A DNA stretch of 64,000 nt from a virus (IMGVR_UViG_3300026546_000001:94296-158295), one strand, 5' to 3'; numbered from the stretch's first letter, positions 12,147 through 62,775 are shown. Numbers and translations: made by a program. Notes: generated by a model not told the origin, from the letters alone.

Positions 12147-12404
12147 TCAAATTTCTTCTAATTCTAATTCTTTTTCTTTTACTAATTTTAATACTTCTTC
12201 TTTAGTTACTGCAAATCTTGATAACGCAAACCAACTCCATGGAAATAAATCACTATTATCAATTTCTTCCAATTGACAACCATAAATTCCTTGTTGTGTC
12301 ATATATGCTATTTTAATAATAGTATATTCTTGGCCTTTTTTAATCCATCTTGAAGTTGGAATTTCATTAGGTCTATTTTTGTCATCAATACATATTACTT
12401 TCAT
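12147..12404 (-). CDS. Small hypothetical protein (MKVICIDD...)
   Basis: ATG at 12404 overlaps the upstream nuclease stop as ATGA, suggesting translational coupling. Confidence 0.7.
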   Translation of the reverse strand: MKVICIDDKNRPNEIPTSRWIKKGQEYTIIKIAYMTQQGIYGCQLEEIDNSDLFPWSWFALSRFAVTKEEVLKLVKEKELELEEI

Positions 12405-14533
12405 AATATTAAATTCCATTTTAAATTACCTGAATTATATATTCTATAATATCCACGTTCTAACATTATTTCGTGTTCTGTTTTGTTTTTATCAAAACCT
12501 TCTTTTATAAGTTGATCTTTTCTATATTTGAACCTATTTTCACGTATTTCATTTACAACATAAAAATAACCTGGATCAGTTATTTTTTCTAATTTAAAAT
12601 CTAACTTTTCATATAAATTACTATAACCCCAATCTAAATCTTGATACGTAATAATTTTAGCTGGTTTATAATTATAAACAAAATATTTGAATAGTTTATT
12701 TAAACCACCAACTACATGATATTTTTCTACAAAACGATATAATTCATATTCATGTTCTTTAGATTTTTGATTCATTGACTTTCTTAAATTACCAAATCCA
12801 ATAACAGAAACTAATTCATCATTATAAAATAAACCTAATTTAATTTTAGTTACAATTGAACCTTGTAAATGATATGTATTTAAAAATTCCTTGTATTCTT
12901 TAAAGTTTAGTTCTTTAATTTTACATTTTCTAGCATATAAAACTTTTTCTTTATTAAATATTATTTTAAGTCTGTGTTTAATAATATTTTGTTTTAAATT
13001 CCAGTCATCTTCCCATATTTGTATTAATCGAACTCCTTTTTCATATGCTAAATTCAATTTATTTTGATGATAAAATTTATCCTTGAATAATTCACTATGC
13101 CAATATATTCCATTCACTTCAATTGCTATATTATATCTTGGAATATAAATGTCTAGTTCTAAAGGTGAAATTATACTTCTATCATTTTTAATATATTTAA
13201 TATTTAGTTCATCTAAAAATTCACAAATTTTATTATGAAAACTAGAATACGAATTTATTGGATTACAATTAGTACATAATTCAATATTAAATTTGTTTCG
13301 TTGATAAGCAAAATAAGAATTCAAAGTGTATTTTTTATTACATTTATTACATTTAAAAGTTATTTCATGATTATCGTAATCTAAATTAACAATATTATAT
13401 TTTTTAAAACGACTTAATTGTTTGTTTTCCCATTCAATTTTTTGTTTTTCTTTATATTCATTTGATTGATTATAATGTTCAATACCATAACGTTCTAAAT
13501 TAGTTTGTCTAATTTTATTTTGTATTTCTTTAGATTGTAATGGATACTCAACGCCATATCTATCTAAATTAGTTCGCTTTATTTTATCTTGTATTTCTTT
13601 AGATTGATATACATTTTCAACTCCATAACGTTCTAAATTAGTTTGTTTAATTTTATCTTGAAATTCTTTAAGTTGTAACGGATGTTCAACTCCATAACGT
13701 TCTAAATTAGTTTGTTTAATTTTCTTTTTTATTAATTCTGATTGATATACATTTTCAACACCATAACGTTCTAAATTAGTTTGCTTGTTTTTTTCTTGTA
13801 TTTCTTTAGATTGTAATGGATGTTCAACTTCATAACGTTCTAAATTAGTTTGTCTAATTTTATCTTTTATATTTGGATTTAATAATGGATGTGAATAACC
13901 AGTATTTTTTTTGTACGTGTTGAATGTTTTTTGGTGTATATCTTTATTTTTCCATGGATGTTCAGTTCCATGTCTTTCTAAACTTGTCTTTTTATATGTT
14001 TTTTTATATTGATCTATATTTTTTTTAAATGATTTAACACGTTTTTCTAATAAAATTTTACTTTTTGCTGGATTATCAACACCATAATGTTTTATCAATG
14101 TTTGTTTACGTTTTTCCTTAATTTTTTCTTTTTCATCATTTGGTTTATTATTAATTGTTTGGCGCTGTTTATTTTTTATTTCATCTAATTTTTGTGGTAT
14201 TTCAACACCATATCGTTTTAAACTAGTTTGTTTACGTTTTTCCTTAGTATATTTTGAACTACTTTGACATTTATTTGAACAAAATGATAAATATCCTAAT
14301 GTTCTATTTTGAAATTTGACAATATTATTACAATTTTCATTTTTACATATTGGAACACTTGTGACATTATTAATCGTATGCCATACTTTTTGACTAAATT
14401 TTAAATCTTGTAAATTATAAGTGTTACAAAATTCTATAATACTTTGATATATTTCAGGATAATGTTTTTTTAAATATTTTTCTTTTGATAACATACCAGA
14501 TGGATCTGGTTTATTAAATATTGAATAATCCAT
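12401..14533 (-). CDS. Repeat-array nuclease #1 (Hef-like free-standing homing endonuclease: 23-aa repeats, Zn ribbon, Vsr/PD-(D/E)XK, GNAT-like)
   Basis: About 10 KQTNLERYGVE repeats, CxxC pairs, ELDIYIP...IEVNGIYWHS...IQIWEDDW, then YARKC...HLQG...ELYRF...ITYQDLDWG. Directly downstream of the sheath gene. Confidence 0.8.
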   Translation of the reverse strand: MDYSIFNKPDPSGMLSKEKYLKKHYPEIYQSIIEFCNTYNLQDLKFSQKVWHTINNVTSVPICKNENCNNIVKFQNRTLGYLSFCSNKCQSSSKYTKEKRKQTSLKRYGVEIPQKLDEIKNKQRQTINNKPNDEKEKIKEKRKQTLIKHYGVDNPAKSKILLEKRVKSFKKNIDQYKKTYKKTSLERHGTEHPWKNKDIHQKTFNTYKKNTGYSHPLLNPNIKDKIRQTNLERYEVEHPLQSKEIQEKNKQTNLERYGVENVYQSELIKKKIKQTNLERYGVEHPLQLKEFQDKIKQTNLERYGVENVYQSKEIQDKIKRTNLDRYGVEYPLQSKEIQNKIRQTNLERYGIEHYNQSNEYKEKQKIEWENKQLSRFKKYNIVNLDYDNHEITFKCNKCNKKYTLNSYFAYQRNKFNIELCTNCNPINSYSSFHNKICEFLDELNIKYIKNDRSIISPLELDIYIPRYNIAIEVNGIYWHSELFKDKFYHQNKLNLAYEKGVRLIQIWEDDWNLKQNIIKHRLKIIFNKEKVLYARKCKIKELNFKEYKEFLNTYHLQGSIVTKIKLGLFYNDELVSVIGFGNLRKSMNQKSKEHEYELYRFVEKYHVVGGLNKLFKYFVYNYKPAKIITYQDLDWGYSNLYEKLDFKLEKITDPGYFYVVNEIRENRFKYRKDQLIKEGFDKNKTEHEIMLERGYYRIYNSGNLKWNLIL

Positions 14534-14566
14534 AAAATATGTTTTAAAGTATTTGTTAAATTTAAC

Positions 14567-14604
14567 AAAAAAAGTCGAAAAGTTTTAACTTTTCGACTTT
14601 TTTT
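14567..14604 (-). terminator. Intrinsic terminator after the tail sheath gene
   Basis: aaaaaaagtcgaaaagtt-tt-aacttttcgacttttttt perfect hairpin. Confidence 0.9.
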
Positions 14605-14621
14605 AACATTTTATTTTTCTT

Positions 14622-17600
14622 TTATTGTTGTAATGTAAAACCACCACTTTGAATTGTACCTGTTCTAAGAATTGTTATGTTATTCACTATTATTCCCATT
14701 CCTTTAATAGGTTCAACATACGTGTCAATAACACCAATTCCAGCATCAATTACATCAGGCGTATTATTTGTTTCATCCATTACGTTTAAATAATCATATA
14801 AACCATCTTGTGCAACAAATCTAGCACAAATCGCATCTGCTCGTTGTTTTATTTCTGATCTAACTTCAGCAGTGTTAAATCTCCATTGGTATGTTAATAA
14901 CATGTTATACATTTCATTTTCAAGTTCAATTAATACTTCACGAACATGAATATTAGATAATGCTGATTTAGGAACTATTGACGCTGTATTATTAGTTTCA
15001 ATATTATAACCTCTATTAAGTTTAAATGTGATTGGATTAGCTCCCATTTCATTTAATTCTGAAATATCATCTCCATCAATATCAACTTCAGTCGCACCAA
15101 ATCCAGTTACTAAACCATTTGTAACACCTGCTGCAATAGTCCATGGATAAACGTCTCCTCTACGAGAATTATGTTTATTCATAAATGTATTTGCAACAAA
15201 CATTGCTGGTGGAACATTTAATGTTCTTCCATTATCATAAATACTTACATATGGGAAGAAATAAGCAACATTACTTTGTCCTTGACCTTGTCCAAATGTA
15301 TATCTAAATGCTGGATTAGATTGTGGATTTCCACCAAGTTTAATGTATTCATAATTTAATGTTCCATCATTATTAATAAATGTTGGATTTGTTGAATGTT
15401 TAAACGCTTTAGCAGATGGCATATTTAATAATCCAAGTGCATTTAATCTAGCACCGCATAAATCAACCATTTGTTGTTTACTATTATTAGTTAAGCCCAA
15501 TCCCCATGAATCAATTAAATATCTCCATGAAATTTGATTTCTATTAGTTAATCCTTTAAATAATGGTGTACCAGGCGCAAATAAATTTAATATTTCATTT
15601 TGACGTTTTTCAGTTCCATCAGGCATACTATCAAGTCTCATTGTAAATCCATCAAATACTAATGCTTGTAATGTATTTACATAATTATCTACAGAATTTC
15701 TACGAACAACTTGAATGTCAATATTTGTACTAGGATCTGCATCAAAATATGCTACAGCTGCATCAGTGCTTATTACGGCTAAACTAGGATCAGCTTCCCA
15801 TATTTGTCTACTATTAATTCGTGTTAATTTTTTAGGTACATATCCAATTGGTAAATCATTAGGAATTGCTGCTTCTAGAAAATCGCCAACCACTATTTCT
15901 CCATATCTATTTGCATCAATTAAAAATTGATTTTGTTCAAGAACTGCTTCTATTTCAACAGTTTGTGCAAAATTAGATCTATCAGAAAATACCCATATTG
16001 TTTTATTATTTTCAGGATCAATTCTTTGTTCACCTGCTGTTTCTAAATCAGGACTATTTACAAAATCAACATATAATTCACTTTGAATACTATACATTTT
16101 TAAGTATACATATTGATCAGGATTACCATCAAATATATGTACTAATTTATTATATTGAACATATTCATTTACTGCTTCATTAACAATGAATGTTGCTTTA
16201 TAATCATACGTTACACCTAATTTAGTATATTGTCCCATTTCATACGCTACACTTAATAGTGTATATGTTCCTGTATTATTATCAACATCTTGAACATAAA
16301 TTTTATCTCCACCTTGAGCGTCTAATTCAGGAATATTTGATAATGGTCCACTATATTCTCCATCAGGTGCACCATCTCTTGTATACATTACAATAATTGA
16401 TTGTCCTAAATCATCTTTAGTAAATTCTATTGCATTAATACCTGAACCATTTGGTATAATATTTTGTAAAAAATAATCACCAGATTTAATTATTCCATCA
16501 TAATAATGTTGATAAAATGTTGATGATTTACTTACAATTCCATAATCAGGAACATTTTCAACAGCTCTCATTCCTATTTCACCAAGTGTAAATGCATCAT
16601 TTGCATAATATAATTCAAAATTGTCTGCAATAACATTTGTAGTAGGAACAGTGATTTTTATATCTTTATTTAGATTATTATCTGTTGTATAACTTACATC
16701 AATTATTTCAGCTAATGTTCCATCTAATAATTTTACAACTGTTTTTCCAACTGCTACATTAGATCGTATATCATTAAACATTTTTAATGCTCTAAATTTA
16801 GTGTAATTATTATCAGCATCAGATACGCGTGTATTATTAAATGTTACTAAAACTTCATAACTAGATATGTAATCAACTAATATATCAACTTCTTCAGATC
16901 CAGCAGTACCATGATCTCCACTAGATACAATTTTCCATGTTAAATTATCTAAAAATTCAATATCATTAACATCTGTTACACCTAAGTATAATTCATCTGT
17001 TGCAGTTGATTGTGTTCTTTGTGTTCCAACTTTAACAATTGCTATTGGATATAATACATCAGAAATTGATAATGTAGGTACAACTTCCCATTCAGTCCAA
17101 TCACTAACTTCTACACCTGTCATTACGCCAAGTTGTCCTTTTGAATCAATATAAATAGTATCCTTTCTTATTCTATTTTCAGATACATCAGGTATTCCAA
17201 TTTCTTGGCCAGACGCAATGTGTAGATCTGATCCATTTAAAACTATTCTTGCTTCATTAGTTAATGTTATTAAACTAACTTTATTTTGTGCTGGATCACT
17301 TGATGGTAAAACATCAAATATTGGACTTACAATCCAAGTTGTTTCAAAAAATCCATTATGTTGAACTTCATTATTATATTCTATTGTTGTATTAAATGCT
17401 AATGTATTACCAGGACTAACTAATGCTTTTTGTTCAAACGAAACAGTTTCGGTTATAACTTCATTATATGACATAAAATTAATATGATCAGTTTCATTTC
17501 CAACTAATGTATGTCCAATTAAATCAATTAAACCGTTTGGATTATCAGTTTCTAATGCATCTACATCATATGTTACAAATAATCCTGTATAATCTGTATC

Positions 17601-18443
17601 ATTATTAATTACAGTTTCAACATAATAATCAGTGCCATTTTGATCTCTAAAATATGGTATAAGAGATACAGTATAATTTTTCAATGTGTTTACAGATGGA
17701 TCATTGACAAAATTATTAAGTTGATCTTTAATTAAACCTTTAGAATTAAAATATCTACTCCATTTAGGATCTACTGATAATGATTTATAATCATTCCAAT
17801 ATCCACTTACCACAACAACATCAATCATATAATCACTAATAAGATCATCAAAATACATCCACGATGGAACTTTATCTCTTCCACCATACCAGTCTTCTGC
17901 TTTAATATCAAAACCAGATATATCAGATTTATAAATAAAAACACTTATTGGTTTATCTGACATATTTGTAAAACTAAGAATCTTAGTTTTTTCTGTTGGT
18001 TGTGTTTTATCAACATTAAATTGAAATGCTTCTGTGTCTCTTAACCAAAATTCATTTTTATCAAAAAAACTTGAATAAGGATCAGAAAAAATTGATGAAT
18101 TTTCAACAGAAGAAGATAATGAAACCGATTGCCATTGTAATAAATCAAGTTCATCATCAGTTTTTAATAAATTTAATGCCCATATAGGTGATTGATTTAT
18201 AACTTGTTGTATTGTTCTATGAAAATAATTACCCTTTTTTTCCAATGTTCTATCTATATCACCAAATATAGATACAAATTCTTGATATGAATTTACAAGT
18301 ACAGGTCTGTTTATAGGTCCTTTCTTACTAAATCCAATAACCAAGTTTATAAGAGTGTCTTGTACTGGAGTTATTTGTGTTGTTTTGTTTATTTCTTGAA
18401 TATAAATTCCAGGACGTCTAAATTTAGATATTTGAATTGCCAT
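14622..18443 (-). CDS. Contractile tail sheath protein (T4 gp18-like), expanded
   Basis: N-terminal RPGIYIQEI...GFSKKGPINRPVLV and C-terminal YFFPY...VPPA...PWTIAAG...SNIHVREVLI...DETNNTPDVID...YVEPIKG. Confidence 0.95.
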   Translation of the reverse strand: MAIQISKFRRPGIYIQEINKTTQITPVQDTLINLVIGFSKKGPINRPVLVNSYQEFVSIFGDIDRTLEKKGNYFHRTIQQVINQSPIWALNLLKTDDELDLLQWQSVSLSSSVENSSIFSDPYSSFFDKNEFWLRDTEAFQFNVDKTQPTEKTKILSFTNMSDKPISVFIYKSDISGFDIKAEDWYGGRDKVPSWMYFDDLISDYMIDVVVVSGYWNDYKSLSVDPKWSRYFNSKGLIKDQLNNFVNDPSVNTLKNYTVSLIPYFRDQNGTDYYVETVINNDTDYTGLFVTYDVDALETDNPNGLIDLIGHTLVGNETDHINFMSYNEVITETVSFEQKALVSPGNTLAFNTTIEYNNEVQHNGFFETTWIVSPIFDVLPSSDPAQNKVSLITLTNEARIVLNGSDLHIASGQEIGIPDVSENRIRKDTIYIDSKGQLGVMTGVEVSDWTEWEVVPTLSISDVLYPIAIVKVGTQRTQSTATDELYLGVTDVNDIEFLDNLTWKIVSSGDHGTAGSEEVDILVDYISSYEVLVTFNNTRVSDADNNYTKFRALKMFNDIRSNVAVGKTVVKLLDGTLAEIIDVSYTTDNNLNKDIKITVPTTNVIADNFELYYANDAFTLGEIGMRAVENVPDYGIVSKSSTFYQHYYDGIIKSGDYFLQNIIPNGSGINAIEFTKDDLGQSIIVMYTRDGAPDGEYSGPLSNIPELDAQGGDKIYVQDVDNNTGTYTLLSVAYEMGQYTKLGVTYDYKATFIVNEAVNEYVQYNKLVHIFDGNPDQYVYLKMYSIQSELYVDFVNSPDLETAGEQRIDPENNKTIWVFSDRSNFAQTVEIEAVLEQNQFLIDANRYGEIVVGDFLEAAIPNDLPIGYVPKKLTRINSRQIWEADPSLAVISTDAAVAYFDADPSTNIDIQVVRRNSVDNYVNTLQALVFDGFTMRLDSMPDGTEKRQNEILNLFAPGTPLFKGLTNRNQISWRYLIDSWGLGLTNNSKQQMVDLCGARLNALGLLNMPSAKAFKHSTNPTFINNDGTLNYEYIKLGGNPQSNPAFRYTFGQGQGQSNVAYFFPYVSIYDNGRTLNVPPAMFVANTFMNKHNSRRGDVYPWTIAAGVTNGLVTGFGATEVDIDGDDISELNEMGANPITFKLNRGYNIETNNTASIVPKSALSNIHVREVLIELENEMYNMLLTYQWRFNTAEVRSEIKQRADAICARFVAQDGLYDYLNVMDETNNTPDVIDAGIGVIDTYVEPIKGMGIIVNNITILRTGTIQSGGFTLQQ

Positions 18444-20791: not shown

Positions 20792-22969
20792 TTATATCAT
20801 TCCACCACGGCTTAATTCATGCATTTTAATATTTGCATGTGTGTATAATTCTTCAGTTAGTTCCATTTTCTTTTTAGCTGACCATAAAATATTATAATCT
20901 ATACCAGTTGGATATTCAACATCATCTAATCGTTTTTCAATAAATTTAATATAATTATCATCAATTTCTGTTTCTATGTAATAATCTATTAAATCTTTAA
21001 AACTTTGGTTATTATACAATGATGCAATTGCAACTAAAGACATAACACAATCATCGTGTCCTGTTTCAGATTCAAAATGATCTTGACTACTTCTATGATT
21101 TTCAACTCTTACAAATGTAGTCATTTCTCTAATTGTTGTTTCTTCATGTGGAAAAATATAATTATTGTTAATTCTATGTTGATATTCTTTAACTAACATT
21201 CCTTTATTATTTCTAATTTTTAACCCAATTTTTCCAAATAATGCATCAGCTCTATGTTTATATCTTGCAAATATATGTGAACTATAATTATTATTTCCTT
21301 GATATAATCCTGGCATGTGTGCTAATAATTCAGCTCCATATGTATTATATTCTAATGCAATTTTTATTTTATTTTCATCTAAAATATGAAATGCTAATAC
21401 ATATATCATTTCAGTTAATCTTTTAACACTTGTATTATTACTATGAAATATTCCAACTTGTTCTAATTTAAAAAAATCATATACACTTTCTATTCTAGCA
21501 TCTTTTAATTCTTCTTTTGATTTAGGTAAAATTCTAAATAAATTTATTACAGAATAATCTTGTCCTAATCCTTCTGCAATATCAATACCAATTGCATACC
21601 AATATTTTTTACGATCTTCCCAATTAAATATATCTTCTCGATCTTTTATCCACTTAAAATCTCTATAATCTATGTGATTTAAATTTTCGTATTCTGGAAT
21701 TTCATGCCAAACAAATTCTGCTTCATTATCAGATATTTCAGCTAATTTATCTTCAGAAAATGTTAAATTACTTGCAGCATAAAATTGTAATCCATATTCT
21801 TGATTAAACGCTTCTTCAGATCCAATATCCTTAATTGTTTCTTCTTTCCATGATGTAACTTGCGCAATATTATTAATACTTATTGACATATTTTCTACAC
21901 GTTCACCAAACGCTTCATCAAAAATATCAGATTTAATAATTAATTGTCTTATATCATCATTTTTTAATTCTGAACTGTTTTTAATATGTATAACCCACCT
22001 AAAATCTTCGTTATTATATTTCATTTTAATATCATCATCTGCAATATTAAAATGTTGTTTAATATAATTAAATACTAATTCTTTAGTTAATCCATATTCA
22101 TCTAATTTATTTTGATTTAATCTAATATATGTAACATTTCTACCTGGAACTTGCCACCAATATACTCTAAGTGCTTTAAAATTATTTTTTCTAGGATCAC
22201 CGTCTGGTCTTTCAGCTGCATCAAGTATTTTCCAAAATAAGTTTCTTCCATTTGGTGTAGATGTAATCACAATTTTAGAATTTTCAATACTTGATACTGT
22301 TGGATATGCAGATCTATAAAAACTTTCTATTATAGTTCTTGGAATATGTGCGAATTCGTCAAAATATAAAAAATCTATCGTAAAACCAATTGCCGGTTCT
22401 TTTGTTCTAGCAGATGTCATAATTCTACATCCTGTATCTTTAAATACAATACTACGTTGTGCCCAACTGCTAACTCCAGGTTTTAAAAAGAAAGGTAAAT
22501 GTTTATAAATACTTTTTATTTTGTCAAGTATTTCAGTTGTTGTAGATAATTTATTTGCCATTATCATAACATTTTTATCTACATTAAATATTACATAATG
22601 TAAAATTGATACAGCAACTGAAACAGTTTTACCAATTTGACGCGATGCCATTAAAATACTAAATCTATTATTTGATATAAGATCAATAATTTTTCGTTGA
22701 TATTTTCTTCCTTTATATGTAAAATTTCCTATTGATCCATCTGAAGTTTTAACTTTACAATATTTTTGTGCAAAATAATGCACATTCATTTTACATTTAA
22801 CATATTCAACTTGTTCTTCTTTTGTCCATCCAAATGCTAAACCAGCTCTTCTAACATCAGGTTCACCAGATAAAAATGGATTTTCATGTCGTTTTGGTAT
22901 ATAACCTTCGTTTATTTTATGTTTAAATTCTTCTACATATTTTGTGGTGAATATCATGTTATTTGACAT
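20792..22969 (-). CDS. terL: Terminase large subunit (T4 gp17-like)
   Basis: Walker A ASRQIGKT, Walker B LYFDEFAH, ITSTPNG, nuclease motifs IGIDIAEGLGQDYS and GHDDCVM. Confidence 0.95.
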   Translation of the reverse strand: MSNNMIFTTKYVEEFKHKINEGYIPKRHENPFLSGEPDVRRAGLAFGWTKEEQVEYVKCKMNVHYFAQKYCKVKTSDGSIGNFTYKGRKYQRKIIDLISNNRFSILMASRQIGKTVSVAVSILHYVIFNVDKNVMIMANKLSTTTEILDKIKSIYKHLPFFLKPGVSSWAQRSIVFKDTGCRIMTSARTKEPAIGFTIDFLYFDEFAHIPRTIIESFYRSAYPTVSSIENSKIVITSTPNGRNLFWKILDAAERPDGDPRKNNFKALRVYWWQVPGRNVTYIRLNQNKLDEYGLTKELVFNYIKQHFNIADDDIKMKYNNEDFRWVIHIKNSSELKNDDIRQLIIKSDIFDEAFGERVENMSISINNIAQVTSWKEETIKDIGSEEAFNQEYGLQFYAASNLTFSEDKLAEISDNEAEFVWHEIPEYENLNHIDYRDFKWIKDREDIFNWEDRKKYWYAIGIDIAEGLGQDYSVINLFRILPKSKEELKDARIESVYDFFKLEQVGIFHSNNTSVKRLTEMIYVLAFHILDENKIKIALEYNTYGAELLAHMPGLYQGNNNYSSHIFARYKHRADALFGKIGLKIRNNKGMLVKEYQHRINNNYIFPHEETTIREMTTFVRVENHRSSQDHFESETGHDDCVMSLVAIASLYNNQSFKDLIDYYIETEIDDNYIKFIEKRLDDVEYPTGIDYNILWSAKKKMELTEELYTHANIKMHELSRGGMI

Positions 22970-23053: not shown

Positions 23054-25069
23054 TTATTGTTTTTTATATATCCATTTTAAATTTCCTGAATTATAAATTT
23101 TATAGTAACCTCTTTCGATCATTATTTCGTGTTCCGTTTTATTTTTATTAAAACCTTCTTTTATAAGTTGATCTTTTCTATATTTGAACCTATTTTCACG
23201 TATTTCATCTTTAAAATATGAATATCCTGGATCAGTTATTTTTTCTAATTCAAAATTTAGTTTTTCATATAAGTTTGAATATCCCCAATCTAAATCTTGG
23301 TAAGTAATAATTTTAGTTGGATTGTATTGTTTAATAAAATGTTTAAATAATTTTGCAAGTCCACCAACGATATGATATTTTTCCGCAAAACGATAAAGTT
23401 CAAATTCATTTTCTATACTATGTTGATTCATAGATTTTCTTAAACTTCCAAATCCAATAACAGACATTAATTCGTTGTTATAAAATAATCCTAATTTAAC
23501 TTTTGTTGCAATATAACCTTGAAGATGGTATTTATTTAAAAATTCTTTGTATTCTTTAGAATTTAGTTCTTTAATTTTACATTTTCTTGCATATAATATA
23601 TTTTCTTTATTGAGTATTATTTTAAGTCTATGTTTAATTATGTCCTGTTTAAATTTCCAATCATCTTCCCATATTTGAATTAAACGAACTCCTTTTTCAT
23701 AAGTTGAATTTAGTTTATTTTGATGATAGAATTTATCTTTATATAATTCACTATGCCAGTAAATTCCGTTTGCTTCAATTGCTATATTATAATCTGGGAT
23801 ATGAATGTCTAATTCTTTAGGACTAATTATATTTCTATCATTTTTAATGTATTTAATATTTAATTCATCCAAAAATTCACATATTTCATTATGAAAATTT
23901 GATGTATAATTTACAAATGGATTACAATATATACAAACATCTCTATTACTTTTATTTCTATAATACGCAAGCCGCCAATTTATTGTATATGTTTTATTAC
24001 ATTTACTACATTTTAATGTAATAGTTTTTTCATCATAGTTAAACGAAATAATATTATAATTATTAAATCGTTTTTGTTGTGTTTGTGTCCAATTTTTAAT
24101 TATTTTTTCTTTATATTCATTTGATTGATTGTAATATTCAACACCATAACGTTTTAAATTAGTTTGTTTTATTTTTTCTTTTACTTCTTTAGATTGATAA
24201 ACGTTTTCAACACCATATCGTTCTAAATTAGTTTGTTTTGTTTTTTCTTGTACTTCTTTTGATTGTGTTGGATATTCAGTTCCGTATTTAGTTAAATTAG
24301 TTTGTTTTGTTTTTTCTTTAAATTCTCCACATTGTACTGGATATTTGACACCGTATCGTTCTAAATTAGTTTGTTTTGTTTTATATTGTATTTCTTTAGA
24401 TTGTACTGGATATTCAACACCATATCGTTCTAAATTAGTTTGTTTTATTTTCTCCTTTATTTTTTCTGATTGATAAACATTTTCAACACCATATCGTTCT
24501 AAATTAGTTTGTTTAACTTTTTCCTGTATATTTTTATTTTGTAATGGTGCTGTTACATTATATCGTTTTAAATTAGTTTCTTTTATTTTCTTTTTTATTG
24601 ATGGATCTTGTGCTGGATTTGAATAGCCAGTTTTTTCTTTATATGTATCAAATGATTTTTGGTGTATATCTTTGTTTTTCCATGGGTGTTCAGTTCCATA
24701 TCGTTTTAAACATGTTTTTTTATACGTTTCTTTATATTGATCTATATTTTTTTTAAATGATTTTACACGTTTTTCTATTGATTTTTTTGAAGATCTTGCG
24801 CATTTAGTAGAACAATATTGTCTATATCCTTTATTTCTATTAATGAAAATGGAATCATTATTACAATTTTCATTTTCACATGTTGGAATATTTGGTATAT
24901 TATTGATAGCATGCCAAATTTTTTGTGAAAATTTTAAATTTTGTAAATTATGTTTATTCGCAAAATTTATAATATTATTATATATTTCTGGATAATTTTT
25001 TTTAATATAAAATTCTTTTGAATATAATCCAGATTTATCTTCTTTGTAAAAAATGCTATAATCAATCAC
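23054..25069 (-). CDS. Repeat-array nuclease #2 (Hef-like)
   Basis: Same architecture as 12401..14533 with about 9 repeats; GTG start; directly upstream of terL. Confidence 0.8.
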   Translation of the reverse strand: MIDYSIFYKEDKSGLYSKEFYIKKNYPEIYNNIINFANKHNLQNLKFSQKIWHAINNIPNIPTCENENCNNDSIFINRNKGYRQYCSTKCARSSKKSIEKRVKSFKKNIDQYKETYKKTCLKRYGTEHPWKNKDIHQKSFDTYKEKTGYSNPAQDPSIKKKIKETNLKRYNVTAPLQNKNIQEKVKQTNLERYGVENVYQSEKIKEKIKQTNLERYGVEYPVQSKEIQYKTKQTNLERYGVKYPVQCGEFKEKTKQTNLTKYGTEYPTQSKEVQEKTKQTNLERYGVENVYQSKEVKEKIKQTNLKRYGVEYYNQSNEYKEKIIKNWTQTQQKRFNNYNIISFNYDEKTITLKCSKCNKTYTINWRLAYYRNKSNRDVCIYCNPFVNYTSNFHNEICEFLDELNIKYIKNDRNIISPKELDIHIPDYNIAIEANGIYWHSELYKDKFYHQNKLNSTYEKGVRLIQIWEDDWKFKQDIIKHRLKIILNKENILYARKCKIKELNSKEYKEFLNKYHLQGYIATKVKLGLFYNNELMSVIGFGSLRKSMNQHSIENEFELYRFAEKYHIVGGLAKLFKHFIKQYNPTKIITYQDLDWGYSNLYEKLNFELEKITDPGYSYFKDEIRENRFKYRKDQLIKEGFNKNKTEHEIMIERGYYKIYNSGNLKWIYKKQ

Positions 25070-47184: not shown

Positions 47185-48612
47185 ATGGCAAAAAGAAGAA
47201 GAACTAAAAAACGAAAAAACGTTGTAAGTACAATTGGTATTGTAGTAGCAAAGGTTTTAAATAGAAATATACCTGAGCCAACTGGCAAAGCGTCAGAACA
47301 TAAACATAATAAAAAAAATAATATACAGCATTATGAAAATACTAAACAAGAAGAAACTAACGAAATTAATAAAAAAACACAAAAAGACAATATCCAAAAA
47401 AATATTGAAAACGAAAAACGAAAAAATGAAATCATTGAAAATATTAATAAAAAAACATCTGAAAAACTTAAAGAATTACAAAAAGAAACAATTAAAATTG
47501 ATCAACAAAAAAACGAAAAAATAGAATTATTAATAATTAAAAAAGAACCAATTGAAGAACCTGAAATTGAAAAACATGAAATTGAAAAACCTGCAATTGC
47601 AGAAGCAGTTGAAGAACCAATTGAAGAACATAAAATTGAAGAACAAATTGAAGAATCAGTTGAAGAACAAATTGAAGAATCAGTTGAAGAACCAATTGAA
47701 GAGTCTGCAATTGAAGAAGTAGTTGAAGAACCAATTGAAGAACCAATTGAAGAGTCTGCAATTGAAGAAGTAGTTGAAGAACCAATTGAAGAACCAATTG
47801 AAGAGTTTGCAATTGCAGAAGTAGTTGAAGAACCGATTGAAGAACCAATTGAAGAGTCTGCAATTGAAGAAGTAGTTGAAGAACCTGTAATTGAAGAACC
47901 AATTGAAGAGTCTGCAATTGAAGAAGTAGTTGAAGAACCAATTGAAGAAACAATTGAAGAGTCTGCAATTGCAGAAGTAGTTGAAGAACCGATTGAAGAA
48001 CCAATTGAAGAGTCTGCAATTGAAGAAGTAGTTGAAGAACCAATTGAAGAAACAATTGAAGAGTCTGCAATTGAAGAAGTAGTTGAAGAACCAATTGAAG
48101 AAGTAGTTGAAGAACCAATTAAAGAAGTAGTTGAAGAATCTGCAATTGAAGAACCAATTAAAGAACCAATTGAAGAACCTGCAATTGAAGAATCAATTGA
48201 AGAACCAATTGAAAAAGTAGTTGAAGAAGTAGTTGAAGAACCAATTGAAAAACCAATTGAAGAAGTAGTTGAAGAACCAATTGAAAAACCAATTGAAGAA
48301 GTAGTTGAAAAACCAATTGAAGAAGTAGTTGAAGAACCAATTGAAAAACCAATTGAAGAACCAATTAAAGAAGTAGTTGAAGAACCAATAATTAAAGAAA
48401 ATAAAAAAGATTTTCATATAAATAATACAAATTTAATACAACAACGTTTTTATAACATGAGTAAATCTAATAATTTTGAATTATATTATAAAAATATAAA
48501 AATATATGATACAGATACATGTAGATTTAAAATAAATTTTGAAAAAGATTATGTTATTATTGAAAATGAAAAATATAGTTATAATCATTTAACTATTAAA
48601 AATAAAAATTAA
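47185..48612 (+). CDS. Glu-rich tandem-repeat protein with a basic N-terminus
   Basis: MAKRRRTKKRK start and about 280 aa of EESAIEEVVEEPIEEPI-type repeats; late motif at 47172-47180. Confidence 0.8.
   Translation: MAKRRRTKKRKNVVSTIGIVVAKVLNRNIPEPTGKASEHKHNKKNNIQHYENTKQEETNEINKKTQKDNIQKNIENEKRKNEIIENINKKTSEKLKELQKETIKIDQQKNEKIELLIIKKEPIEEPEIEKHEIEKPAIAEAVEEPIEEHKIEEQIEESVEEQIEESVEEPIEESAIEEVVEEPIEEPIEESAIEEVVEEPIEEPIEEFAIAEVVEEPIEEPIEESAIEEVVEEPVIEEPIEESAIEEVVEEPIEETIEESAIAEVVEEPIEEPIEESAIEEVVEEPIEETIEESAIEEVVEEPIEEVVEEPIKEVVEESAIEEPIKEPIEEPAIEESIEEPIEKVVEEVVEEPIEKPIEEVVEEPIEKPIEEVVEKPIEEVVEEPIEKPIEEPIKEVVEEPIIKENKKDFHINNTNLIQQRFYNMSKSNNFELYYKNIKIYDTDTCRFKINFEKDYVIIENEKYSYNHLTIKNKN
47545..48390 (+). 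repeat. Coding minisatellite (about 51-bp units built from shorter subunits)
   Basis: gaagagtctgcaattgaagaagtagttgaagaaccaattgaagaaccaatt repeated about 8 times, with degenerate flanking copies. Confidence 0.95.
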
Positions 48613-50090: not shown

Positions 50091-51497
50091 ATGGAAGGAA
50101 TAATTGATAAAATAGAAGAAATATCATCTGGTATTAAAAAAATTGATGCAGATGTTGAAGTTAATAATAAAAATTTAGAAAATATTGAAGTATTAACAAA
50201 GGATAATAAACAACAAACTTCTGATAATACATCAATTGTAAATGATATAAATGATGTAAATGCAAAAAAATTAAATGCAAATAAAAATGAATCACTTAAT
50301 ATTGTAACTAAAACACTAGATAATATTTCTTTAAATGAAAACAAAGATGAATCTGAAAAAGATTTAGATGAACCTAAATCAAATAATAAAATAAATGATA
50401 TTTATGATAAATTAGAATCAAATTTAAGTTTATTAAATAAAAATATTTTGAAAATTAATGATAATAAAAATAATGAAAATATAATTCCTAAATCAGATAA
50501 TATTATTAATTTAACAAATGATATAACAAACAAATTTTCAGATAAAATTGAAAAATCATTATCTAAAATAACAAATAATAATGAAAAATTAATTAATAAT
50601 ATATCTAAATTTACTAATGTTGATAATGTTACAAGTAATATTTCAAATTTAACAAATGATAATAAATTTATATCTAAAATATCTAAATCTTTAAACGTAG
50701 AAAATCAAACACAAAATTTATCTAATATAGTCAATAAATCATTGCATAATATTACATCAAAAATTGATAATATTAATCCAAATAATATTTATAAAAATAT
50801 ATCTGATAAACTTAATATTAATAATGAAAAAATATTGAGTAAAGTTAACAATATTACAAATGAAATTAAACCAGAAAAGTTATTAAATAAGGTTGAAAAT
50901 ATTGCAAATGAAATTAAACCAGAAAAGTTATTAAGTAAGGTTGATAATATTACAAATGAAATTAAACCAGAAAATATAAGTAAAATTTTTAATAAAAACA
51001 ATAAAAATGAATTAAATAATATTAATACTAAAAATATTACGACATCTTTAGAAGAACAACCAATAATTAATAAACAAAATGATATAACTACAAACGTAGA
51101 TAATTCAAAATTAATTTCAAATAATAATTCATTTATTAAAAAAACAAATAATGAATATAATAAATCAAATGAATTTAAAGAAATATTACACACTCCAGAA
51201 ATGATAAAAACTAAAGTTGAAAGAATTGAAAATATAAAAGAAAATAAATCAACTAATGAACAATCTCATAATGACAATTTAAGTAATAAACCTGAATTAA
51301 ATAATAATAATCCGATTAATTTAAATACACAACAACAAATAATGTCATTAAACAATAATTCACAGTCTAATCAATCAAATATTGAAATGTTATTAACTGA
51401 ATTAATTTCAATTAATAAAAAATTATTAGTTTCACAACAAAAATTGATAAAATCTAAAAGTATTGAAAAATTAAAAAATGGCCCTATTTCTAATTAA
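50091..51497 (+). CDS. Asn/Lys-rich low-complexity protein
   Basis: 468 aa with three 16-aa repeats (KV.NI.NEIKPE) at about 50838-50981. Confidence 0.7.
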   Translation: MEGIIDKIEEISSGIKKIDADVEVNNKNLENIEVLTKDNKQQTSDNTSIVNDINDVNAKKLNANKNESLNIVTKTLDNISLNENKDESEKDLDEPKSNNKINDIYDKLESNLSLLNKNILKINDNKNNENIIPKSDNIINLTNDITNKFSDKIEKSLSKITNNNEKLINNISKFTNVDNVTSNISNLTNDNKFISKISKSLNVENQTQNLSNIVNKSLHNITSKIDNINPNNIYKNISDKLNINNEKILSKVNNITNEIKPEKLLNKVENIANEIKPEKLLSKVDNITNEIKPENISKIFNKNNKNELNNINTKNITTSLEEQPIINKQNDITTNVDNSKLISNNNSFIKKTNNEYNKSNEFKEILHTPEMIKTKVERIENIKENKSTNEQSHNDNLSNKPELNNNNPINLNTQQQIMSLNNNSQSNQSNIEMLLTELISINKKLLVSQQKLIKSKSIEKLKNGPISN

Positions 51498-58103: not shown

Positions 58104-58122
58104 AAAATAATAATTAATATTA

Positions 58123-58503
58123 ATGTTCTTAATAAAATATAAATGGTATAAAAAATTAATACAACGATTATACGAAAAAGCACATCCATATAAAACGCCA
58201 GTTAAATGGACATTATCATATAATGGATATTTAATTTCAATATTAGATGTGTCACATTTAGGTGATTTTGATCATATTAAAATCACAGAAGGTAATAGTT
58301 TTGAAGGAAGAAATTTCTCATATATGATGGAAAATGACCGTCGTTTAACTGTTCAATATATACTAAATGAATATTCCTATTTACCTGAAAAAATGAAACA
58401 ACGAATGGCAGAAATATTAAAAAATCATTTAGATGTACCTGACGAACCTATGGATACTTTAATTGAAGAAACAGAATATTTTTTTGGTACGGAAAATATT
58501 TAA
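58123..58503 (+). CDS. Hypothetical protein
   Basis: 126-aa ORF. Confidence 0.65.
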   Translation: MFLIKYKWYKKLIQRLYEKAHPYKTPVKWTLSYNGYLISILDVSHLGDFDHIKITEGNSFEGRNFSYMMENDRRLTVQYILNEYSYLPEKMKQRMAEILKNHLDVPDEPMDTLIEETEYFFGTENI

Positions 58504-58859
58504 TTTTTACGTATTAATATTCCATTTTCATATTCAAATTTAAAATCTTGTATCCAAGATAAAAATTCTTCATCTTTTAATCCTGTATCACTAATTATAA
58601 ATGGTGCAATTGCTAATGTAACATTATACTTATCAATTAATTTTATAATTTGTTTTAATGCAAATGTTGTTCTTAAATCACGAATATCATATACAGTGAC
58701 ATTAGTAATATAAACAATGTCATCTTTAAACTTAAATTCAAAAGATGCATCATTATTTATTATTATTTCATTTAAATTAAATGGATTTTTATATCCAATT
58801 GAATTCAAATCATTAATAAAATTATTAAAACTAGTTAGCTCCATATGTGCCATTTTCAA
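58500..58859 (-). CDS. Small protein, possible degenerate GNAT fold
   Basis: IVYITNV...LKQIIKLIDKYNVTLAI...LSWIQDFKFE; MELTSFNNFIN near the N-terminus. Confidence 0.5.
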   Translation of the reverse strand: MKMAHMELTSFNNFINDLNSIGYKNPFNLNEIIINNDASFEFKFKDDIVYITNVTVYDIRDLRTTFALKQIIKLIDKYNVTLAIAPFIISDTGLKDEEFLSWIQDFKFEYENGILIRKN

Positions 58860-59127
58860 TTAAATGTAAGTATATTTTAGCTCTTATTTTATTTAATAAT
58901 GTACATTTTACTTCAACACCTTCAACATTTATATATGAATTTAAATCAGCATGTATTATTAAATGTACATAATCTTTTAATTCATCAATATTTGAACTTG
59001 CATCTTCTAATATATTTCTTAATACTCCTTTTCTTATATCTACATCTAAATATATTCTACCTAAACGTTGATTTGCAATAACTTTTGGCTTTATTGGTGG
59101 AACCATCCAATTTGGATTTACAGTCAT
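58831..59127 (-). CDS. Hypothetical protein
   Basis: 98 aa; late motif at 59150-59158. Confidence 0.6.
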   Translation of the reverse strand: MTVNPNWMVPPIKPKVIANQRLGRIYLDVDIRKGVLRNILEDASSNIDELKDYVHLIIHADLNSYINVEGVEVKCTLLNKIRAKIYLHLIENGTYGAN

Positions 59128-59218
59128 GTTTTAATTTGTTATTTTTTAATTATATATTATTTTTTTAAACTATTAAATATATTTTTATTATATTTATATA
59201 ACAATATATTAATATAAT

Positions 59219-60931
59219 ATGACTGAACAAGAAATACTAAATATAATCAATAAACAAGATACTTCTGGAATGTTGTCTAGAGAAAAATATTTAAATAAAC
59301 ATTATCCAGAAGTATTACAATATATTAAAAATTTTGCAAAAAAATATAATTTTATAAATATGTCAATTTCTCAATTAAAATGGCATATTAAAAATAAAAT
59401 TTATGAAATTCCTAAATGTAAAACATGCGGTAAAGAATTAAAATTTAAAAATTCTACAATAGGATACCCAAATTTTTGTTCAAAAAGTTGTACGGTAAAA
59501 AATAAAGAAACACAAGAAAAATATAAACAAACAATGTTAAAAAAATATGGTGTTGAACATAATAGTCAAACTGATACATATAAAAAGAAATTTAAAAATA
59601 CAATGTTAAAACGTTATGGTGTTGAACATGCACTTCAAAATGAAAATATTAAAAACAAAATGAAACAAACAACACTTCAGCGTTATGGAAAAACATCAAT
59701 TTTTAAAGTTAAAGAATATCAGGAAAAAATTAAACAAACAATGCTGCAAAAATACGGAAGTACTTGTGCAATTTCTTCAGATACCATTAAAAATAAAATT
59801 AAACAAACTGTTTTAAAACGATATGGAGTAAATAGTATTTTACAAGATAAAACAACTAGACAAAAAATATCTAAAACAACAAAAAATAATACAATTCTAA
59901 AATATAAAAAAGAATTCAATAATGTTAAACAAATCATTAATATAATAGATTCTAATAATATATTAATAAAATGTGAAAAATGTAATGAAAATCGCTCAAT
60001 AAATAATGTTAATATATTACGTTATAGATTAAAACACAACTTACCAATATATTGCACTGAATGCTTAAAACAAGAATATATATCAAATTTTCAAACTGAA
60101 CTTCAACTATTTTTAAATAAATTAAATGTTAATTATACTAGAAACAATAGATCTATAATTTCACCTTTAGAATTAGATATTTATATTCCAGAATATGATT
60201 TAGCAATTGAAACAAATGGAATTTATTGGCATAGTGAATTATTCAAGGATAAATTCTATCATCAAAATAAACTAAATTTATCAAAAAATAAAAATATTCG
60301 ACTAATTCAAATATGGGAAGATGATTGGTATTTAAAACAAAATATAATTAAGCACAGACTTAATATAATATTTAATAAAGAAAAAGTTCTATACGCTAGA
60401 AAATGTGAAATTAAAGAATTAAATTCTAAAGAATATAGACAATTTTTAAATATATATCATCTTCAAGGTTATGTTACAACAAAGATTAAATTAGGTTTAT
60501 TTTATAATAATGAATTAGTTTCTGCTATTGGATTTGGAAGTTTAAGAAAATCAATGAATCAACAATCTAAAGAAAATGAATATGAACTTTATCGTTTTGC
60601 TGAAAAACACCATGTAGTTGGTGGACTTGCAAAATTATTTAAATATTTTATTAAACAATATAATCCAACTAAAATTACAACATATCAAGATTTAGATTGG
60701 GGATATAGTAATTTATATGAAAAGTTAGGGTTTAAATTAGAAAAAATAACTGATCCAAGCTATTTTTATGTTGTAAATGGAATTCGTGAAAATAGATATA
60801 AATACAGAAAACAACAACTAATAAAAGAAGGCTTTGATGAAAATAAAACTGAACACGAAATAATGTTAGAACGTGGATATTATAAAATTTATAATTCTGG
60901 TAATATAAAATGGATTTGGACAAATAAATAA
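59219..60931 (+). CDS. Repeat-array nuclease #3 (Hef-like)
   Basis: 5 divergent 23-aa repeats, CxxC pairs, ELDIYIP..IETNGIYWHS and the same GNAT-like C-terminus. Confidence 0.8.
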   Translation: MTEQEILNIINKQDTSGMLSREKYLNKHYPEVLQYIKNFAKKYNFINMSISQLKWHIKNKIYEIPKCKTCGKELKFKNSTIGYPNFCSKSCTVKNKETQEKYKQTMLKKYGVEHNSQTDTYKKKFKNTMLKRYGVEHALQNENIKNKMKQTTLQRYGKTSIFKVKEYQEKIKQTMLQKYGSTCAISSDTIKNKIKQTVLKRYGVNSILQDKTTRQKISKTTKNNTILKYKKEFNNVKQIINIIDSNNILIKCEKCNENRSINNVNILRYRLKHNLPIYCTECLKQEYISNFQTELQLFLNKLNVNYTRNNRSIISPLELDIYIPEYDLAIETNGIYWHSELFKDKFYHQNKLNLSKNKNIRLIQIWEDDWYLKQNIIKHRLNIIFNKEKVLYARKCEIKELNSKEYRQFLNIYHLQGYVTTKIKLGLFYNNELVSAIGFGSLRKSMNQQSKENEYELYRFAEKHHVVGGLAKLFKYFIKQYNPTKITTYQDLDWGYSNLYEKLGFKLEKITDPSYFYVVNGIRENRYKYRKQQLIKEGFDENKTEHEIMLERGYYKIYNSGNIKWIWTNK

Positions 60932-60933
60932 TT

Positions 60934-62775
60934 ATGATACTAAATAAAAAAATAACAATTAATATAACAAATAAAAACGTTAGTTATTATAAAAAATTAG
61001 GATATAACGCTAAATCAAATGAAAAATTAACAATAAATGTATTAGATTTAACTAAAGGATCTAAAGAAATTGTAGAAATACAATGCGATTATTGTAATAA
61101 AATATTTACAGGTGTATATAAACGTTTTGTAAAAGAAGAAAAACATAGTTGTGGTAATAAATCTTGTAAATTACAAAAAACTAAAGAAACAAATTTAAAA
61201 AAATATGGAGTAGAAAATGTTTATCAATCAAAAAATATAAAAGATAAAATAAAACAAACTAATTTAAAACGATATGGTGTAGAAAATCCTAGTCAATCTA
61301 AAAAAATACAAGAAAAAATAAAATATAATAACTTTAAAAAATATGGAGTGGAACATACGTTACAAATTGAAAAAATTAGAGAAAAAGGAAAACAAACATT
61401 ATTAAAAAAATATGGAGTAGAACATCCAATGTATTCTTCAGAAATAAAAGAAAAATTAAAACAAACAAATTTAAAAAAATATAATACAGAATACGCAAAT
61501 CAATCTAAAATTGTTAAAGAAAAAACAAAACAAACAAATTTTAAAAAATATGGAGTTGAATGTTTTTCAAAAACAAAAGAATATAAAGAAAAAACAAAAC
61601 AAACAAATTTAAAAAAATTTAATGTAGAATATCCTACACAATCTAAAGAAATACAAGAAAAAACAAAACAAACAAATTTAAAACGATATGGTGTAAAAAA
61701 TTACTCACAATCAAAACAATATAAAGAAAATAATAAAATAAAATGGATACAAATACAAAAAAATAGATTTAACGATTATGATATTATATCATTTAATTAT
61801 GATAAACGAGAATTAACATTTAAGTGCGATAAATGCAATAATGAATATACTGTAAATTGGAAATTTGCATATTATAGAAATAAAGCAAATCAAAATATTT
61901 GTGTATATTGTAATCCAATAAATTCATATTCTAATTTTCATAATGAAATTTGTTATTTTTTAGATAAACTAAATATTAAATATGTTAAAAATGATAGATC
62001 TATTATCTCACCTTTAGAACTAGATATTTATATTCCAGAATATGATTTAGCAATTGAAACAAATGGAGTTTATTGGCATAGTGAATTGTTTAAAGATAAA
62101 TTTTATCATCAAAACAAATTAAATTTAGCAAAAGATAAAAATATTAGATTAATTCAAATATGGGAAGATGATTGGTATTTAAAGCATGATATTATTAAAC
62201 GTAGACTTAAAATAATATTTAACAAAGAAAAAGTTTTATACGCTAGAAAATGTCAAATTAAAGAATTAACAAATAATGAATATAAAGAATTTTTAAATGA
62301 GTATCATCTTCAAGGATATATAGCAACTAAAGTTAAATTAGGATTATATTATAACAATGAATTAGTTTCTGTTATTGGATTTGGTAATTTAAGAAAAAAC
62401 ATGAACCAACAATCTAAAGAAAATGAATATGAATTATATCGTTTTGCAGAAAAATACCATATAGTTGGTGGTTTAAGTAAGCTATTTAAACATTTTATTA
62501 AACAATATAATCCAACTAAAATTATTACATATCAAGATTTAGATTGGGGATATAGTAATTTATATGAAAAACTAGGGTTTAAATTAGAAAAAATAACTAA
62601 TCCAGGGTATTTTTATAGTAAAAATGGAATTCGTGAAAATAGGTTTAAATATAGAAAAGATCAATTAATAAAAGAAGGTTTTGATATAAATAAAACAGAA
62701 CACGAAATAATGTTAGAACGTGGATATTATAAAATTTATAATTCTGGTAATATAAAATGGAATTGGACAAATTAA
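60934..62775 (+). CDS. Repeat-array nuclease #4 (Hef-like), different N-terminal Zn-finger module
   Basis: 8 repeats and the same C-terminal half; converges on the capsid gene. Confidence 0.8.
   Translation: MILNKKITINITNKNVSYYKKLGYNAKSNEKLTINVLDLTKGSKEIVEIQCDYCNKIFTGVYKRFVKEEKHSCGNKSCKLQKTKETNLKKYGVENVYQSKNIKDKIKQTNLKRYGVENPSQSKKIQEKIKYNNFKKYGVEHTLQIEKIREKGKQTLLKKYGVEHPMYSSEIKEKLKQTNLKKYNTEYANQSKIVKEKTKQTNFKKYGVECFSKTKEYKEKTKQTNLKKFNVEYPTQSKEIQEKTKQTNLKRYGVKNYSQSKQYKENNKIKWIQIQKNRFNDYDIISFNYDKRELTFKCDKCNNEYTVNWKFAYYRNKANQNICVYCNPINSYSNFHNEICYFLDKLNIKYVKNDRSIISPLELDIYIPEYDLAIETNGVYWHSELFKDKFYHQNKLNLAKDKNIRLIQIWEDDWYLKHDIIKRRLKIIFNKEKVLYARKCQIKELTNNEYKEFLNEYHLQGYIATKVKLGLYYNNELVSVIGFGNLRKNMNQQSKENEYELYRFAEKYHIVGGLSKLFKHFIKQYNPTKIITYQDLDWGYSNLYEKLGFKLEKITNPGYFYSKNGIRENRFKYRKDQLIKEGFDINKTEHEIMLERGYYKIYNSGNIKWNWTN

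Follow-up and report, generated by a model that had tools for sequence, protein, structure and literature searches.

Hef-like homing endonucleases with variable 23-residue repeat arrays in a viral genome: candidates for modular DNA binding

Four genes in a 64,000-nucleotide stretch of viral DNA (IMGVR_UViG_3300026546_000001:94296-158295) encode proteins in which a tandem array of 23-residue units precedes a nuclease, and they raise the question of what these enzymes are and whether the array reads DNA sequence. The stretch, called the window here, is the final 64 kb of a 158-kb viral contig with a CheckV completeness of 34%, and its GC content ranges from 19% to 29%. An earlier interpretation made from the DNA alone (the sequence-only reading) held that the arrays resemble transcription activator-like effectors (TALEs) as DNA readers, with three variable residues after a YGVE motif specifying bases and with the target changed by the gain, loss, and shuffling of repeats. 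Judged by sequence, the four genes are paralogous free-standing homing endonucleases (HEs; HE1 to HE4) of the Hef-like branch of the EDxHD (Vsr-like) family, and they are new members of a known family. For the array, the favored interpretation, to which a probability of about 0.6 is given, is a modular DNA-binding region with unit-specific contacts that does not follow a simple code of one k-mer per unit.

The four open reading frames (ORFs) translate without stops, and the encoded proteins share one layout from the N to the C terminus: a small N-terminal domain with a zinc ribbon, the repeat array, a second zinc ribbon, a nuclease of the I-Bth0305I type, and a tail with a Mom-like GNAT fold. 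The arrays match the Pfam family DUF7487 (PF24308) with scores of 188.9, 200.9, 110.7, and 136.3 bits for HE1 to HE4 (E values of 1e-31 to 1e-59; gathering threshold, 27 bits), and the whole 158-kb record contains 12 DUF7487 matches. PHROG families 3339, 559, and 12131, which carry the annotation of homing or HNH endonuclease, match the HEs as well; for HE1, the matches reach E = 1.5e-55 for DUF7487 in Pfam and E = 4e-143 for PHROG 3339 ("homing endonuclease"). The N-terminal domain of HE4 is unlike that of HE1 to HE3, and the HE4 N terminus matches PHROG 12131 and 5104. Relatives are present in 438 phage records by tblastn, all below 60% identity, and several are annotated as Hef-like or EDxHD; records of Dickeya, Campylobacter, and Klebsiella jumbo phages are annotated as Hef-like, EDxHD, or homing endonuclease. 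Phage Hef enzymes have been assigned to the EDxHD family (PMC3239194). The PHROG matches agree with the sequence-only reading on the neighbors, namely, the tail sheath, large terminase (terL), and major capsid protein (MCP) genes, and both family and context support its view of HE genes located beside conserved virion and packaging genes. HE1, HE2, and the HE3-HE4 pair sit between conserved genes, outside introns and inteins, and the flanking ORFs are intact. In Dickeya phage LIMEstone1, Hef-like free-standing genes adjoin tail tube, baseplate, and terminase genes (PMC2988022, PMC3296691), and nrdB is cited as the gene cut by the Hef of phage U5 (PMC2988022).

The region that follows the HE1 array (protein P0001, residues 433 to 514) matches the catalytic domain of I-Bth0305I (3r3p_A; phmmer, E = 1.1e-5). 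An AlphaFold2 (AF2) model of the C-terminal 346 residues, based on 126 homologs, has a predicted local distance difference test score (pLDDT) of 96.6 and a predicted template modeling score (pTM) of 0.85. In Foldseek, the catalytic half of this model matches 3r3p with a template modeling score, TM(target), of 0.79 to 0.80, a root mean square deviation (rmsd) of 2.8 to 3.1 Å, and 26% identity, and it matches Vsr (1cw0) with E = 6e-4. P0001 residues D461, N474, and H479 align with D196 (Ala in the crystal form), N208, and H213 of I-Bth0305I, and all three fall in nearly invariant columns. Conservation among the 126 homologs is complete or at least 90% for E459, D461, E472, W478, H479, and H489; the alignment of the last Asp of the EDxHD motif is uncertain. 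The HE1 central zinc ribbon appears as a three-stranded sheet at residues 16 to 41 of the AF2 model, and its matches to Pfam zinc ribbons are weak. For the last 180 residues, Foldseek ranks phage Mu Mom first (8bv8; E = 7.9e-7), ahead of many GNATs. The Mom-like profile PF25680 is precomputed on many homologs; an hmmscan of the HE1 to HE4 proteins gave no match to it. These 180-residue Mom-like domains, at 12404-12944, 23057-23602, 60383-60928, and 62230-62772 of the window, contain an invariant H-L-Q-G motif.

A hidden Markov model (HMM) of the repeat unit finds 9, 8, 5, and 8 units in HE1 to HE4 at E < 1e-3, with one or two additional degenerate units in each of HE1 and HE2. The ORFs and the counts of about 10, 9, 5, and 8 units in the sequence-only reading are thus borne out (9 to 11, 8 to 9, 5, and 8). 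The spacing is mostly exactly 23 residues, and it is exactly so for the final six units of HE1, in which the triplet order is IPQ, NPA, HPW, and then HPL NVY HPL NVY YPL HYN. Tandem Repeats Finder (TRF) detects a 69-bp periodicity in the DNA at 13475-13870, 24100-24597, 59519-59672, and 61175-61742, with 70% to 76% matches, and in HE1 a 138-bp double unit with 83% matches (13451-13870). The entropy is highest at unit positions 14 to 16, the triplet after YGVE (2.4 to 3.0 bits), followed by positions 2, 19, and 4 (2.2 to 2.8 bits). Conserved K, R, T, N, and Q residues are common to every unit, and positions 15 and 16 are mostly P/A/V and L/F/M/S. The arrays have isoelectric points of 9.5 to 10.1, with K plus R exceeding D plus E by 17 to 28; of the constant and basic scaffold described before, the basic character therefore stands, but the constancy does not, given the entropy at positions 2, 4, and 19. 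The triplets listed then (HPL, NVY, YPL/YPV/YPT, NPS, HPM, and the terminal HYN/YYN/NYS) are real. The small vocabulary that they suggested holds within this genome but not across the family, in which about 420 units from related loci include 155 triplet types and the five commonest types cover less than one fifth. In this genome, units with the same triplet have a scaffold nucleotide identity of 0.78, versus 0.66 for other unit pairs, and the NVY units of HE1 and HE2 reach 0.82 to 0.88. Because the scaffolds of same-triplet units are more alike, the reuse of triplets in this genome reflects the descent and exchange of whole units and not a choice from a code table.

An AF2 model of the eight HE4 units, based on 122 homologous eight-unit windows, has a pLDDT of 91.9 and a pTM of 0.48. 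In this model, each unit contributes a 15-residue helix that starts at position 19 and ends at position 10 of the following unit, then a four-residue loop (G11 V12 E13 x14) and a one-turn 3-10 helix (x15 x16 Q17), and this unit anatomy would place the variable triplet in an eight-residue elbow between helices. Independent ESM models of other family members superpose on the AF2 array with rmsd values of 4.0 to 4.6 Å over about 160 residues, which suggests that the array has a regular, defined shape. Foldseek of the array model against the Protein Data Bank (PDB) gave nothing at E <= 0.001 (best TM score, 0.17), a wide VIA-align search gave only long coiled coils (Z <= 3.4; rmsd of about 40 Å), and a structure search of the Atlas with the array returned only other DUF7487 clusters. 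Neither a TALE nor a solenoid is present in these fold-search lists, which is only weak evidence. At the level of models, the array fold is confidently predicted, without a match among solved structures.

The DUF7487 array is found far beyond these four genes. At least 7,540 homologs of similar length were found in a word-indexed search, and an exhaustive search with the array only returned 18,805 clusters at 50% identity, with 11,566 at E <= 1e-10. In 69 of the 138 top array proteins, phmmer finds neither the Hef-type nuclease nor the tail; some of these carry DUF559, MTES_1575, or TnsA-N PD-(D/E)xK nucleases instead (Pfam), and in one ESM Atlas cluster, the array is joined to an N6/N4 DNA methylase. 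These fusions to varied nucleases and a methylase indicate that the array is a portable module that is always associated with DNA-acting enzymes, and it is always N-terminal to the DNA-acting domains. Many family members of working length have just two to four units, and on one kind of nuclease, the array length ranges from 2 to 18 units. No paper naming DUF7487 was found in the literature searched. An extreme local density of the family is seen in L279, a T4-like contig of 176 kb, where an 18-kb locus with the portal, capsid, and sheath genes holds six DUF7487 genes, several of which have MTES_1575-type nucleases in place of the Hef tail.

The paralogs are mosaic. The nuclease and tail of HE1 to HE4 share 77% to 85% amino acid identity (82% to 87% at the nucleotide level), in line with the nearly unchanged nuclease half noted earlier, versus 18% to 66% for the N-terminal domains and zinc ribbons, and the array was rightly seen as a variable module on a near-constant catalytic half. 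Either the catalytic half has been homogenized by gene conversion or varied front ends have recombined onto one back end; both routes, as read from the sequences, fit a constant cutter with exchangeable front modules. A fifth paralog (HE5) is located upstream of the window (G000 68260-70104, minus strand), and a sixth (HE6) is located past its end (L001 17882-19486, plus strand), divergently upstream of the prohead protease gene, at a site that is occupied by a related HE in distant relatives. HE5 and HE6 show 49% to 57% identity to the other paralogs throughout. No difference in gene content is seen between this genome and its only close relatives, L001 (99.9%) and L274 (99.4%), over the stretches that they share. 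The T4-like contigs L083 (5731-7761) and L278 (6259-8289) carry an HE between gp23 and the next gene; their virion genes and flanks are 95% to 100% identical, versus only 77% to 93% for the HE gene, and the differences consist of replaced whole repeat units and a replaced catalytic half. This is the best-resolved close pair in which the triplets changed faster than the scaffold. Sequence comparison, including the 138-bp duplication in HE1, supports the change of arrays by unit duplication and whole-unit replacement.

HEs from 116 loci, together with those of the window's contig and L001, were grouped by the family, side, and orientation of the neighboring gene, and the unit register was set from scaffold positions only. 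At a variable-scaffold mismatch of 0.45 to 0.55, same-site pairs (n = 38) have a triplet mismatch of 0.25 and different-site pairs (n = 87) one of 0.73, and at 0.55 to 0.65, the values are 0.52 and 0.79, respectively. The ratio of same-site to different-site mismatch is lowest at positions 14 (0.41) and 15 (0.42), barring the near-invariant G11 (0.37); it is intermediate at positions 5, 6, 2, 21, 18, and 16 and at least 1 at positions 7 to 10, 19, 20, 22, and 23. The leading triplets of HE6, NVY YIS HYL NIS, correspond to NVF YIS HHL NVS in a phage with a capsid protein that is about 52% identical, and 70% of the variable scaffold positions differ between the two. Further lineages show the same pattern of triplet conservation. 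In other close pairs, the triplets change faster than the scaffold (0.30 versus 0.18). An orthology test by scaffold similarity alone was also tried and was noisy, with many pairs of 0.55 to 0.62 identity being nonorthologous; genomic context gave cleaner groups. These sequence comparisons support the view that positions 14 and 15 behave like unit-specific determinants.

In the favored interpretation, the basic, regular array would lie along the DNA flanking the cut site, where it may add affinity and some lineage-specific site preference, by analogy with the NUMOD-type modules of other phage HEs. The dimeric nuclease would supply much of the specificity, as it does in I-Bth0305I. Unit duplication, whole-unit replacement, and recombination between paralogs would remodel the arrays and possibly shift the target preference. 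Several points weigh against this interpretation. Contact of the array with DNA and the reading of bases by the triplets are both inferred. Of the 303 same-site unit pairs, 250 come from one lineage, the sheath-downstream group, and the conserved units of that group belong to a conserved N-terminal region, some of them to a region shared by HE1 and HE2. Partly buried residues (P15 and L16) may simply evolve slowly. Among the HEs downstream of the capsid gene, the arrays differ widely between lineages; these unrelated arrays just downstream of Gp23 rule out a general rule that the same neighbor gene means the same array. NUMOD and helix-turn-helix (HTH) profiles gave no Pfam match in HE1 to HE4 even at E <= 10, and a NUMOD or HTH relationship of the array was rejected on this ground. 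No close HE-less relative was found, so that both the mobility of the genes described here and their target sites are putative: a sheath query against viral and metagenome contigs gave no match, and an MCP query returned only distant relatives and L274 (99.4% nucleotide identity), which ends inside the MCP gene and covers the far side only. One sequencing run contained 17% of the sheath-region words. A total of 160 Gp23 loci, related to those of two capsid-adjacent HEs, are without a DUF7487 gene and were considered as empty alleles; at 53% to 62% protein identity, they are too distant, and the sequence to be searched is too extensive for the collinear code test described below.

The strongest alternative, although an unlikely one, is that the array is a nonspecific DNA clamp or ruler that grips the backbone and sets the length of the footprint and the affinity, with the triplets being alternative solutions for the elbow and all specificity residing in the nuclease dimer. 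The flanking contacts of I-Bth0305I, which are largely nonspecific, are a precedent for such a clamp. In addition, the conserved K, R, T, N, and Q residues are identical in every unit, the residues at positions 15 and 16 look like packing residues, one nuclease kind carries 2 to 18 units, and the code test described below is at chance level. A clamp does not readily account for the unit-specific retention of positions 14 and 15 over long divergence while exposed scaffold positions saturate, for the close pairs with faster change at the triplets than in the scaffold, or for arrays that stay distinct on homogenized nuclease halves.

Two stronger forms of sequence reading are considered doubtful. 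The first, quite improbable at present, is that the DUF7487 array is a natural modular DNA reader, in which each unit touches a short groove segment of fixed length, positions 14 and 15 (with 16, 2, 6, 18, and 21) set the preference, and viruses retarget one nuclease by exchanging units. The second, with about the same low likelihood or slightly less, is a TALE-like or zinc-finger-like code, in which each unit reads a fixed number of base pairs specified by the triplet after YGVE, the order of units spells the target, and shuffling retargets the enzyme. Such a code would fit the highest variability between units at positions 14 to 16, the best conservation among site-orthologous units at positions 14 and 15, the different arrays of paralogs with a common catalytic half, and the exchange of units as wholes; by a rough geometric estimate, the 15-residue helix (about 22 Å) also roughly equals the path of 3 bp in the major groove.

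The code was examined by a collinear test, which has the premise that unit types with a constant k-base target must, when repeated in an array, face matching internal repeats in the DNA. HE1, HE2, and eight further arrays with 8 to 23 same-type pairs were compared with both strands of the DNA within 10 kb on either side for k = 1 to 12. Units were assigned to types from the triplet or, alternatively, from position 14, 16, 14 plus 16, 2, or 19, and permuted unit orders served as the control. In one series of 528 tests, 20 gave p < 0.05, versus 26 expected by chance, and the best of the other 72 tests gave p = 0.015. For the most redundant array, P0008 (16 units and 23 same-type pairs), the best site at k = 3 shows a same-type identity of just 0.57. 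The test was confined to genomes carrying the endonuclease, which may have lost or mutated the target; the result speaks against a simple code with the target kept near the gene, and target-losing carriers or a degenerate code would escape it. Base specification by collinear triplet order, as the sequence-only reading had it, thus found no backing in these carrier genomes. Other observations also count against the code: there are 155 triplet types in the family, the scaffold varies as well and the DNA repeats are only 70% to 83% alike, same-triplet units share descent (0.78 versus 0.66), and many working-length members have only two to four units. That the array instead binds protein or RNA, for instance, to tether the nuclease to the replication or recombination machinery or to regulate the Mom-like domain, is very improbable; it would suit an array that matches no known DNA-binding fold and for which DNA binding is deduced indirectly, but the array is strongly basic, is always fused to DNA-acting enzymes of several unrelated catalytic types, and occupies the place of the DNA-binding module of I-Bth0305I and other phage HEs.

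Comparison with known systems places these HEs next to I-Bth0305I (PDB 3R3P; PMC3239194), which has a homologous nuclease with a conserved Mg-binding Asp, a conserved Asn, and a conserved general-base His, and an N-terminal DNA-binding region. I-Bth0305I is a homodimer with a footprint of up to 60 bp, has most of its specificity in the central 14 bp, and makes largely nonspecific flanking contacts through its N-terminal region (PMC3239194). In contrast to the HEs of this genome, it is intron encoded and has two NUMOD2/HTH-like motifs, a region that is a hallmark of this prototype and not of the Hef branch; here, its place is taken by 5 to 11 DUF7487 units flanked by two zinc ribbons, and a Mom-like C-terminal domain is added. 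The Hef-like F-LimIII, -VII, -VIII, and -X of LIMEstone1, the Campylobacter phage HEs, and the U5 Hef belong to the same family and are free-standing beside structural genes, with several copies per genome. The HEs described here differ from those of deposited phage records in showing at most 44% identity to them, in having longer arrays than most isolates, and in their number, since about 160 kb of a genome of megaphage size contain six copies or more. Phage Mu Mom (8BV8; PF25680) shares the Mom/GNAT fold of the C-terminal 180 residues, but in the HEs this fold is fused to a nuclease.

TALE repeats resemble DUF7487 units in being short tandem helical repeats with clustered variable positions, and a nuclease is joined to the array naturally here and by design in TALE nucleases. 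However, TALE repeats are 33 to 35 residues long, contain two helices, are nearly identical, and use a handful of repeat-variable diresidues, whereas DUF7487 units are 23 residues long, are predicted to contain one helix, are diverged, and carry 155 triplet types; there is no structural match between the two, and no collinear code was detected in the carrier genomes tested. The TALE analogy is supported neither by the predicted anatomy, with a single helix plus elbow per unit in place of two helices, nor by the degree of identity among the repeats. The NUMOD modules of I-TevI and I-HmuI are similar in being short modules in an extended chain beside a phage homing nuclease. NUMOD-type modules are thought to give long, sparsely contacted sites. 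The DUF7487 array differs from them in having no profile match, in being N-terminal and not C-terminal to the nuclease, and in having far more regular and numerous repeats. The Pfam entry for DUF7487 assigns no function, and the predicted helix-plus-elbow anatomy and the constraint on positions 14 and 15 go beyond that entry.

As annotation, the four genes are ordinary members of a known family of selfish genes. Their interest lies in the DUF7487 repeat, which is among the commonest uncharacterized viral repeats and in which two adjacent positions appear to behave like specificity determinants on a module fused to several kinds of DNA-acting enzymes. If the array reads sequence modularly, it would be a compact new DNA-targeting scaffold, and if it proves to be a modular reader, it would join zinc fingers, TALEs, and PUF/PPR repeats as the fourth protein scaffold that can be programmed. 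Modular reading would also explain how multicopy HEs colonize different essential genes of one genome. If the array is only a clamp, it would still account for the long footprints of this enzyme class. The positions of the genes, their parts, and their neighbors are listed in Table 1.

Table 1. Positions in the window of the four homing endonuclease genes, their parts, and the neighboring genes
Feature	Position	Strand	Basis or remark
HE1 (P0001, 710 aa), Hef-like free-standing homing endonuclease	12401..14533	-	Immediately downstream of the tail sheath gene
HE1 repeat array, aa 99-362	13448..14239	-	Unit HMM, TRF
HE1 central zinc ribbon (CxxC...CxxC), array-nuclease junction	13259..13366	-	Sequence
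HE1 catalytic half: EDxHD/Vsr-like nuclease (aa 433-525) and Mom-like GNAT-fold domain (aa 530-710)	12404..13237	-	AF2, Foldseek
HE2 (P0002, 671 aa, GTG start), paralog just upstream of terL	23054..25069	-	ORF, DUF7487, PHROG
HE2 repeat array, aa 115-321: HPW, APL NVY YPV YPV YPT NVY YYN	24107..24727	-	Unit HMM, TRF
HE2 nuclease and Mom-like half	23057..23893	-	83% aa identity to the HE1 counterpart
HE3 (P0003, 570 aa), leading gene of the tandem HE pair	59219..60931	+	ORF, DUF7487, PHROG
HE3 repeat array, aa 101-215, five diverged units: HNS HAL SIF CAI SIL	59519..59863	+	Unit HMM, TRF
HE3 nuclease and Mom-like half	60092..60928	+	Identity to HE4, 85% (aa) and 87.6% (nt; ~860 bp)
HE4 (P0004, 613 aa), second of the two tandem genes, in convergent orientation to the MCP gene	60934..62775	+	ORF, DUF7487
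HE4 repeat array, aa 82-265, eight uninterrupted units: NVY NPS HTL HPM YAN CFS YPT NYS	61177..61728	+	Unit HMM, TRF, AF2
HE4 nuclease and Mom-like half	61939..62772	+	Alignment
Tail sheath gene, HE1 neighbor	14622..18443	-	PHROG 34521 "tail sheath," E = 1e-86
Large terminase gene, HE2 neighbor	20792..22969	-	PHROG 5989 and PHROG 2 "terminase large subunit"
Major capsid protein gene (Gp23 family), HE4 neighbor, cut by the window end	62845..64000	-	PHROG 138

The MCP gene is complete (594 aa; PF07068) in contig L001, which is 99.9% identical and comes from another assembly. Within this gene, at 63940-63985 of the window and on into L001 14722-14960 and L274 7450-7586, three assemblies of this phage that are otherwise 99.4% to 99.9% identical diverge sharply. 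The divergent patch covers codons ~150 to 230, with 12 mismatches over 46 bp of the window and about 25 over 100 bp of L274; the changes are both synonymous and amino acid changing, and two of the three contigs end inside the patch. Possible explanations are a boundary of recombination, a stretch that confers immunity to a nuclease, and selection on a surface loop.

Three other features of the window were noted. A 2,082-aa ORF (35196-41444, plus strand) is located where gene orientation and GC skew turn from the minus to the plus strand. ORF 47185-48612 (plus strand) contains a long tandem repeat at 47594-48389 (periods, 12, 51, and 102 bp; the 12-bp unit is present in 63 copies), which encodes an acidic E/P/I-rich repeat protein. 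In addition, a 48-bp tandem repeat (3.2 copies; 87% matches) lies at 50826-50978 in very AT-rich surroundings with 19% GC.

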